Part shown: one piece after another, positions 42,001 to 45,000 of the stretch
Numbering within the stretch: position 1 is the stretch's first letter
Layout of the letters: each line of letters starts with the position of its first letter
NCBI GenBank assembly: GCA_964016885.1
Contig: CAXHJY010001115.1
Location: forward strand, 1-59,831
DNA length: 59,831 bases
Direction: 5' to 3'
From: Eledone cirrhosa
Lineage: Eukaryota
Position numbers and translations under genes: made by a program
Notes under the pieces: generated by a model
The model's database searches: none
What the model was told of the DNA's origin: nothing
The model's input: only the letters and a program-made list of their open reading frames with translations

Positions 42001-45000
42001 AGCTTTGCCTTTCACCCTTATGGTGCCCATAATAATGATGTTGATATATATTTGTATGAGATAATGAAGTTTCACTTTAAAATATTTTTTATTCCATATC
42101 GAATGTGACAGATGTTTAACCCTTTACCATTTACATTACTCTATATATACTATTGTAATTTAGTGGTAAAAGCTTTATTTCATATAATATCACACACAAT
42201 ATCGAATCTATGAGATTTTGATATTATTTATGTTGAGAACAATACCTAAAAATCCGTATGAGTTCCCAGTTAGGGCCATTTTGAAGAGAAAGAGGTGAGA
42301 AAATTCTGGCTGGATAAGGCCGGTTTAAATGCTAAAGGGTTAATTGGTTAATTGATATGATAGACCCGAGTTTGAGTATTGATCTGCTCACTGGACATGT
42401 ATAATTAAAACAAAACATTTCCACCTCTGGGGCAGCCAACTTCCACACTTGCTATCAGGAACATGTCTAACCACTAAGCCATATATATATATATGTGAAT
42501 GTGGTTTGTGTTAGGAAGGGCATCCAGCCGTAGAAAGCCTGCCAGATAGTCCTATACGAGCGAGACACGGTCACCCGACCAATCTTGCCTCAAGTGGGAC
42601 AATTCCCGTCTAACCCATGCTAGCGTGGAAGATAGACATTAAACGATGATGATGATACACACACACACACACACACACACACACACACACACACACACAC
42701 ACACACACACACACACACACACACACACACACACACACACACACACACACACACACACACACACACACACACACACACACACACACACACACACACACAC
42801 ACACACAAATACATGCACATATACACACATACTTAGTGGTTTCAAATTGAAGCAAAGCAACAAAATTCACCTGTAACCTGCTGACAGTTTCTGAGAATTA
42901 ACACTGACCAATGCTTCCTACCTTCATTTCAGGTGGCCACTGATGTTATTGAAGAATTAAATCTTAAACCACATGAAGTGTACCTGGGACAAGGTAAGTT
43001 TTTTTTTTAAAATCTTCTTTACAGCTGAGGATAGTGGATGTGGCAGAATCTTTAGAGCACCGTGCTAAATGCTTTTTAGCATTTAGTTACGGCTCATTAT
43101 GTTCTGAGTCCAAATTCCACTGAGGTCGACTGTCTTTTATCCTGCCGATATGTACGGGAGGGGGAAGGGGAAGTAATGGGATCGATATACTCCTGCCCCC
43201 TAAAAACATTACTGGCCTTGTGTCTAAATTAGAAACCATTGAGAGCAGTGGAGTTTCACATTTGTTAGTGTATTGGAAGAAATGCTTTATGGTATTTAGT
43301 TTCGGCCCCTAGTTCAAATCTTACTGAGGTCAATAAAATAGAGTACCTGTCAAATACTGGGGTTTATTAGAAACCATTATCTTTCATTGTATGTGTCTAA
43401 ATGTACCCTCTTATTTCTCTAAAACTACCCAGGTACACTAACACTGTATCACTTGTGTATGTGTTTAAATGTACTCTCCTCTTTCTCTACTCCTACCCCT
43501 GTACCCATGTATTACTGTGCTTATATGTACACCTCTCTCTCTTTTTATAGTACCCTGTACTAACATATCTACCTCTCTATCTACCCTGTACTAACATATC
43601 TACCTTTCTATCTACCCTGTACTAACATATCTACCTTTCTATCTACCCTGTACTAACATATCTACCTCTCTATCTACCCTGTACTAACATATCTACCTTT
43701 CTATCTACCCTGTACTAACATATCTACCTTTCTATCTACCCTGTACTAACATATCTACCTTTTTATCTACCCTGTACTAACATATCTACCTTTCTATCTA
43801 CCCCTCTCTATCTACCCTGTACTAACATATCCACCTCTCTATCTACCCTGTATTAACACATGTACCTCTCTCTCTGTCTACCCGGTACCCAGGTACACTA
43901 AGACCCGAATCTATTGACAATGACTCCAGGTTCGCAAGTTCAAATCCAGATCCCATCAAGGGACATCACAGGGATACAGAACTGGTTCGTGAACTGAGAT
44001 TAAAGGTAAGTTGACTGGGGTAACATTGAGTGGGTATGTTGAGGTGTACTGTGAGTGGGGTAACATTGAGTGGGTATGTTGAGGTGTATTGTGAGTGGGG
44101 TAACATTGAGTGGGTATGTTGAGGTGTACTGTGAGTGGGGTAACATTGTAGTGTGTTGAGGTGTAATGTGGGTGGGGTAACATAAAGTGGGTATGTTGAG
44201 GTGTACTATAAGTGGGGTAACATTGTGGTATAGGTTATGGTGGAATGTGGGTGGGTTAACATTGAGTGGGTATGTTGAGGTGTACTATGGGTTGGGTAAT
44301 ATTGTGGTGTAGGTTATGGTGGAATGTGGGTGGGTTAACATTGAGGGGTAGTTAACATGGTGTGGGTTAATATGGACTAGGTGGGGGTAATATTGAAGGA
44401 TGGGTGGGGTAACATTGAGGGATGGGTTATGGTGTACTGTGGATGGGGTAACAGTGAGGTGATGATAATAAATAGTTATAACAATACAAAACTACAAAAT
44501 AACAAGAAACAGGTTTTTTTGTGGGTAGGAGGCAGGTATATGGCATAGAAAGGTGGGATCAATAATAAAGAAACATTAACCCTTTAGCATTTAAACCGAC
44601 CATATCCGGCCAGAATTCTCTCTTTTCAAACCGGCTGTAACTGGCCACTCATACTGATGTTAAGGTATTGTTCTCAAAATAAATAACATCAAAATTTCGT
44701 AGGTTCAATATTATGTGAGATAATTATGTTAGGTAAAGCCTTTACCACAAAAATACAATAGTAAATATAGAGTAATGTAGATGCTAATGGGTTAATACAC
44801 AGCAACAACAACCATAACAATAATAATAATAATTGTTTCTACTTTTGGCACAAGGCCAGCAATTACCCAGTGCATTACTGGTATTTTATTTTATCGACCC
44901 CGTAATAATAATAATAATAATATGTTTACATTTTTTTGCAGGGCCGAGTAGTGGAACCCCTGAAAGATTTCCACAAAGATGAAGTGAGGCTGATTGGAAA

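Follow-up and report, generated by a model that had tools for sequence, protein, structure and literature searches.

In animals, GMP synthase (GMPS) both makes GMP and activates USP7, a deubiquitinase whose targets and pathways include histone H2B, p53 and Hedgehog signalling. The two functions are difficult to disentangle; cephalopods seem to use two genes for them. The activation of USP7 by GMPS is independent of GMP synthesis, as described in the accessible part of a review (PMC5131776). In the human protein, K321 sits in the GMPS peptide that binds USP7 Ubl2, and the substitution K321A disrupts binding, according to the available portion of PMC4457826. The catalytic residues have been probed in Plasmodium GMPS where, in the accessible text of PMC10526850 and bioRxiv 10.1101/808618, D371A nearly abolishes the formation of adenyl-XMP, E374L has no glutamine-dependent activity and a 72-fold lower ammonia-dependent activity, N390A has no GMP activity, T387A has a mild effect, and K386, H388 and H389 serve ATP binding and adenylation.

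We analysed a stretch of 59,831 nucleotides from Eledone cirrhosa (hereafter the window), which contains an intron-bearing GMPS. Its 15 exons, when joined (32911-48802), give 652 codons free of stops, and all junctions are GT-AG with the phase kept (Table 1). Residue numbers are those of human GMPS, and intron-bearing copies are called window-type and copies resembling a second gene on contig C11 intron-less-type. The GATase, ATP-pyrophosphatase and C-terminal dimerisation domains are present and collinear with the canonical copy, and Pfam and fold searches on the O. vulgaris orthologue support this domain set. The glutaminase N-terminal loop in exon 1 reads DAGTLY, against the canonical DAGAQY. 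Exons 7-9 and 11-14 each show 0-2 differences from the O. vulgaris orthologue, with none in the 35 residues of exon 11.

Table 1. Positions of the GMPS exons and of other features in the window and on other contigs (window coordinates unless a contig is named)
Feature	Position	Strand	Remarks
Exon 1	32903..33003	+	ATG 32911; splice acceptor 32901-32902
Exon 2	34627..34718	+	
Exon 3	37134..37248	+	Catalytic Cys (human C104) to Ser, codon 37234-37236
Exon 4	37690..37787	+	Motif REDG to QEDK
Exon 5	39321..39424	+	Glutamine-binding THGD to TPGD, codon 39355-39357
Exon 6	40150..40343	+	HPE retained, triad His and Glu
Exon 7	40570..40735	+	PP-loop SGGVDS intact, 40579-40596
Exon 8	41117..41268	+	Basic loop aligning with human USP7-binding peptide; Lys321 equivalent 41191-41193 retained, Arg in every intron-less copy
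Exon 9	42933..42993	+	
Exon 10	43893..44005	+	Helix 11 and lid loop
Exon 10 substitutions	43907-43909; 43916-43918; 43961-43963; 43970-43972	+	D372E; E375D; T390G; N393R
Exon 11	44942..45047	+	KDEVR, RHPFP intact
Exon 12	46105..46220	+	
Exon 13	46538..46663	+	P479/H480/L482 equivalents retained; absent from intron-less copies
Exon 14	47914..48029	+	D522, R524 equivalents retained
Exon 15	48499..48802	+	Q610, C631, Q632 equivalents retained
Upstream exon	C788:13275-13425	-	N-terminal extension with six-cysteine run
Large inverted repeat	224-9891		(TA)-rich arms, reverse-transcriptase-like element between
RVT_1 match	4927-6789		Weak; in the inverted-repeat element
Two LINE copies	28858-32270; 49900-53299		99% identical, opposite orientation
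Further LINE pieces	53543-55778; 57731-59831		The second at the contig end
Minisatellites	43551-43875; 44012-44350; 45549-46029		Periods 31, 40, 61
Intron-less GMPS	C11:27625768-27627828		One frame
UTP15-like gene	C11:27615965-27617503	-	Single exon, 513-codon frame, PF09384

The surroundings of the gene are rich in repeats. The two long LINE copies flank the GMPS exons, and the minisatellites flank exons 10 and 11.

Both ends of the gene extend beyond the window. The last exon, of about 34 codons, lies outside it, and tblastn, a protein search and a degenerate pattern all failed to locate it in the assembly, so the C-terminus of the window protein may be truncated. A contig from run X1 reaches about 290 bases beyond exon 15 (record coordinates), which leaves space for this exon. 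One pattern match on C3 was discarded as chance, with stops on both sides. The C-terminal XMP-binding loop (K685/E691), which belongs to the part not located in this assembly, is retained in the Octopus and Argonauta orthologues with changes nearby. At the other end, the upstream exon on C788 has a splice phase that matches the acceptor of exon 1, which places C788 upstream of C1142. This Cys-rich exon is conserved in O. sinensis, Argonauta and one further cephalopod record, and its six-cysteine extension could act as a lipid anchor.

The original prediction held that exon 10 encodes a peptide of canonical length in which the synthetase catalytic loop is rewritten (PDLIES to PESIDN, KTHHN to KGHHR) beside an unchanged PP-loop segment and RHPFPGPGL. 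Exon 10 indeed has GT-AG borders and continues the frame of exon 9 into exon 11; its peptide and length are as had been read, and the two other segments are unchanged in the window protein. Of the lid motif, T390 and N393 are lost, and K389, H391 and H392 are retained. Helix 11 has ESIDN in place of DxxES and the lid IKGHHR in place of IK(T/S)HHN. In the glutaminase triad Cys is replaced by Ser, and His and Glu remain; the PP-loop and the helix-12 Lys/Arg that bind ATP and PPi are complete (8 of 8 residues). All 135 non-cephalopod animal GMPS proteins examined have D372, E375, T390 and N393, and all four residues are altered in the window. The alignment of mollusc and other animal GMPS on which the prediction could have failed left it standing, as single-copy GMPS lack the residues of the window protein. 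Nor did an alternative canonical exon 10 appear in the window (tblastn) or in genome searches, one of which had a stricter first pass and gives a floor. Differences from the O. vulgaris orthologue are concentrated in the lid, at 8 of 22 residues; elsewhere in the synthetase and dimerisation domains, 14 of 422 residues differ (Fisher p 2 × 10−6).

The letters of exon 10 were compared with sequencing runs. Exon 10 with its flanks (43880-44045) is reproduced without a difference in a contig of run X2. In run X1, exons 10 and 11 have the same depth and unique intron sequence is uncovered, and no difference appears in 8 exon-10 rows among the matches listed; assembly error is therefore unlikely. 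In a 2412-base contig of run X1, exon 3 is joined to exon 4 over a 441-base GT-AG intron with 0 differences, and identical letters in this contig confirm the Ser codon of exon 3. Because of the splice joint we read X1, which itself carries no label, as RNA, and the contig supports expression of the window gene. X1 and X2 come from one study, possibly the source of the assembly itself, and thus check the letters and do not sample a second population. In run X5, from a close relative (organism B), exon 11 is covered with 1 listed difference, and exons 3, 4 and 10 are uncovered. RNA editing was considered as a rescue and rejected, since A-to-I conversion cannot turn TCC, GAA and AGG into codons for Cys, Asp and Asn.

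A second GMPS was detected on C11 by a Pfam search of the genome. It is intron-less, has 687 codons (open frame of 696 codons) and carries canonical residues at all catalytic motifs; on this basis the C11 copy likely makes GMP. The two proteins align collinearly with 61% identity (397 of 651 residues). Searched with the O. vulgaris orthologue, the genome gave 16 matches, the C11 copy plus the 15 window exons, and no third GMPS copy was among these matches, which set a floor. The coding region of the C11 copy lacks introns and stands beside an intron-bearing sister gene, from which we infer, on the basis of one genome, that it arose by retroposition in a cephalopod ancestor. A UTP15-like gene, a second housekeeping gene with a single exon, lies about 8 kb from the C11 GMPS. 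A duplicated IMPDH was considered as a sign of a new pathway and dismissed: there are two family loci, the number expected anyway, which would presumably be IMPDH and GMP reductase. Cys occupies the human G38 site in all intron-less-type copies, where 135 of 135 outgroup proteins carry Gly, and the site has also changed independently in the Octopus and Argonauta window-type copies.

Both GMPS copies are present in the named octopods O. vulgaris, O. sinensis, O. bimaculoides and Argonauta hians, and the window protein is 93% identical to CAI9740749 of O. vulgaris. In a tree of 54 rows built with a quick method, the window-type and intron-less-type copies form sister clades within one cephalopod clade (SH-aLRT 97). 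Each type splits into octopods and a second cephalopod branch, of which Sepia pharaonis is a named member on the intron-less side only, so the duplication predates the octopod radiation. Window-type records from non-octopod cephalopods are near canonical (KVHHND, 1-4 departures of 208), which indicates that catalysis lasted long after the duplication.

Erosion has followed different courses among the octopods. E375D and T390G are common to their window-type copies; D372E, S376N, A377D, N393R, C104S, H153P and G127K are found in the window lineage only, among those sampled. The orthologues of O. vulgaris, O. sinensis and O. bimaculoides have PDFIDSAS and KGHHND and retain the Cys-His-Glu triad, D372 and N393, because of which these three proteins may keep some activity. 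The Argonauta copy has PDVIDTT and KGHHND, its triad His is Gln, and in A. hians 29 of 208 invariant positions are changed, making it the most eroded copy seen. The triad has thus been lost at Cys in the window copy and at His in Argonauta. The series of O. vulgaris, Argonauta and Eledone cirrhosa offers a view of parallel loss of different catalytic residues.

Rates of change were compared against a reference of 135 non-cephalopod animal GMPS proteins, none dropped. The invariant set, with a threshold of at least 98%, comprised 208 columns. Of these the window protein covers 196 and deviates at 18; departures number 14 of 208 in the O. vulgaris orthologue, 2-4 in intron-less-type copies and a mean of 0.45 in outgroup proteins, a value that is low partly by construction. 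Between two species, the window-type copies are separated by 15 differences at 196 invariant sites and 21 at 245 variable sites; the intron-less copies of the same pair show 4 differences at 208 invariant and 68 at 253 variable sites. Lineage-specific changes, pooled over the tips of the three fully sampled octopod lineages only, show the same contrast: 33 of 588 at invariant sites in window-type versus 4 of 624 in intron-less copies (p 1 × 10−10), and 37 of 732 versus 90 of 759 at variable sites (p 3 × 10−6). With all or with non-vertebrate references the contrast is found in each of 6 settings and is stable across thresholds; with a vertebrate-only reference it is weak (p 0.005-0.05). Since the window-type copies are slower than the intron-less ones at variable sites, they are not decaying.

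The changes fall on particular sites. By site sets defined from the literature, one or more octopod window-type copies show changes at 4 of 10 glutamine-site and 6 of 9 lid residues, compared with 0 of 8 ATP/PPi residues and 0 of 4 XMP-phosphate residues (the window protein covers 1 of these 4); the intron-less copies are changed at 0 of 10 glutamine-site and 0 of 9 lid residues. The earlier claim that changes concentrate on reaction-specific residues, with the fold and the ATP site persisting, is borne out by these sets and by the counts per exon. Against a run from a related octopus, 10 synonymous changes were counted at about 21 sites in 32 codons (about 0.48, uncorrected), and this high divergence beside a conserved protein points to strong purifying selection on the window protein overall. 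The 8 of 22 lid differences are fewer than the 68-84% of a rough neutral expectation and hence give no sign of positive selection. Taken together, the pattern fits relaxed constraint on the amidotransfer machinery.

These results bear on what the window copy has lost and on what it has kept. The equivalents of Plasmodium D371, E374, T387 and N390 are changed, and those of K386, H388 and H389 are kept. As the catalytic Cys and lid residues are gone, normal GMP synthesis is unlikely, a judgement by analogy with Plasmodium mutants that carry different substitutions. The original prediction's argument against a simple ammonia-dependent GMPS is likewise good for this species in view of Plasmodium N390A and D371A, with the reservation that D-to-E and N-to-R are other substitutions.

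Residues lost reciprocally by the two copies suggest what has been kept. A set of 28 residues, at least 60% conserved in the outgroup, is present in 7 of 7 window-type and lost in 7 of 7 intron-less-type copies compared, and 22 residues show the opposite pattern in octopods; many of these losses are conservative changes. The first list includes K321, H301, N305, H480, L482, Q632 and C631, the last conserved in 133 of 135 outgroup proteins; among the residues of the second are R124, L373, E375, A385 and T390. Of 135 outgroup proteins, 118 have Lys at the K321 site, as do 10 of 10 window-type cephalopod proteins and the window's own; 16 of 16 intron-less-type sequences have Arg, a conservative change that may leave binding intact. 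The net charge of the loop is +3/+4 in window-type and +1/+2 in intron-less-type copies, and the USP7 of this genome retains the MDGD acidic pocket. The KxxxK motif that binds USP7 is nevertheless only half present: K321, its first Lys, lies in the basic loop of the window copy, but the second, K325, is Asn there and in most intron-less copies (among 135 outgroup proteins, 77 have Lys and 30 Asn at this site). A complex prediction, run without alignments for the O. vulgaris orthologue (52-720) and O. vulgaris USP7 Ubl1-3 (535-860), gave a score of 0.00 and no contacts and weighs neither for nor against binding. No GMPS-USP7 complex was among the PDB matches and no structure paper was found in the literature searched. 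K321, H301, N305, P479-H480-L482 and C631-Q632 form a candidate non-catalytic surface that could be mutated in human GMPS.

On these sequence grounds we lean, with modest confidence, towards the window GMPS being a pseudoenzyme that keeps a non-catalytic role as partner and activator of USP7; the non-catalytic readings taken together are likely. Retroposition in a cephalopod ancestor would have produced the intron-less GMPS, which would have taken over GMP synthesis, and the parental intron-bearing copy would have come free of selection for amidotransfer in octopods. What it retained would be the USP7 function described for GMPS in fly and human. Nucleotide binding may persist through the ATP loop, K389/H391/H392 and the residues for the XMP phosphate, which could let the window copy report purine status. 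The gene is intact, expressed and conserved, and it has lost catalytic residues beside an active-type homologue, two properties of a pseudoenzyme at the level of sequence; three motifs that define an active GMP synthase, the triad, DxxES and the lid motif, are broken in it. Slow decay of a redundant copy to a pseudogene is extremely improbable and already largely refuted: in its favour are the canonical copy, the small and repeat-rich contigs that hold the gene and the failure to find the last exon, but 652 stop-free codons in 15 GT-AG exons, a spliced 2412-base contig, variable sites changing at less than half the rate of the active copy, and a window-type copy kept in all named octopods found all speak against it. 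Persistence as a weak, ammonia-fed GMP synthase is very improbable; D372E and E375D are conservative, T390 is of little importance in Plasmodium and the Octopus orthologues retain N393 and the triad, yet Plasmodium N390A is fully inactive and E374L has 72-fold lower ammonia-dependent activity, and here N393 is Arg and five adjacent invariant residues are altered.

Two further readings share part of the evidence. The window copy could have altered chemistry, adenylating XMP or a related substrate with ATP, no longer drawing on ammonia from glutamine, and passing the intermediate to another nucleophile. K389, H391, H392, the PP-loop, K416 and R420 are retained in three octopod lineages, the changes lie mainly at residues for domain coupling, for the use of glutamine and for the step that follows adenylation, and some of them need two base substitutions (G127K relative to a related octopus, N393R from the genetic code); that all three lineages keep K389/H391/H392 and the ATP site fits continued adenylation equally well. 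We still think altered chemistry unlikely, as D372, required for adenylation in Plasmodium, is Glu, the lid varies among the three lineages unlike a new, fixed active site, and 8 of 22 lid differences, below the neutral range, leave positive selection unsupported. Quite unlikely, too, is an octopod glutamine-independent nucleotide-activating protein that would bind ATP and XMP, form or trap an adenylated intermediate, serve a non-GMP product or a purine-status USP7 switch, and include a Cys-rich, possibly membrane-anchored isoform. Alternatively, the protein could act non-catalytically with a partner other than USP7, as a regulator of the active copy or as a scaffold, possibly at membranes through the Cys-rich exon. 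Conservation spans the ATPPase and D1 exons, beyond the USP7 loop, the Cys-rich upstream exon is conserved in this genome, O. sinensis, Argonauta and a further cephalopod record, and viral pseudo-amidotransferases work through an active homologue in the available part of PMC7605207. We regard a different partner as rather improbable, given that no non-catalytic role of animal GMPS is better documented than USP7 activation and that the sole residue mapped for USP7 binding sorts with the window copy; a heterodimer is less expected because human GMPS is described as monomeric in the accessible part of PMC10526850. The interpretation in the original prediction is partly supported; it lacked the canonical intron-less paralogue, the sharing of the divergence by other octopods and the loss of different conserved residues in the two copies. 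Of the options it named, the pseudoenzyme is favoured and the nucleotide sensor kept as an option, and the altered-substrate enzyme comes without a sign of positive selection.

As far as our searches reach, a conserved, spliced GMPS paralogue eroding beside a canonical intron-less copy is undescribed. Among the papers listed, none dealt with an octopus or cephalopod GMPS duplicate or pseudoenzyme; subscription papers and supplements lay outside the search.

Comparison with known systems places the window gene close to animal GMPS. Human GMPS (PDB 2VXO) has the same domain order and fold; it is the top sequence match of the C11 copy and the top fold match to the predicted model of the O. vulgaris orthologue, with 63% identity. 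Like animal GMPS, the window protein retains the PP-loop, KDEVR and RHPFPGPG; unlike single-copy animal GMPS (135 of 135), it lacks C104, D372, E375, T390 and N393. One human protein performs catalysis and USP7 activation, whereas in octopus these would be the work of two genes. With the GMPS-USP7 complex of Drosophila and human, which has a GMP-independent role, the window copy shares Lys321 and the basic loop, and the genome shares the USP7 pocket; there the partner is the active enzyme, but here it would be a separate, eroded gene in which K325 is Asn. Yeast GAL1/GAL3 and the mammalian PRPS-associated proteins are cases in which a duplicated bifunctional enzyme yielded an enzyme and a dead regulator, perhaps one that binds ligand. 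They belong to other families, and in the present case the intron-less daughter keeps the catalytic motifs and the parent has lost them, unevenly among octopods. The gamma-herpesvirus vGATs are amidotransferase homologues without the triad that act by protein binding, according to the accessible part of PMC7605207; they are viral, derived from PFAS and recruit an active enzyme, whereas the window gene is a cellular GMPS paralogue.
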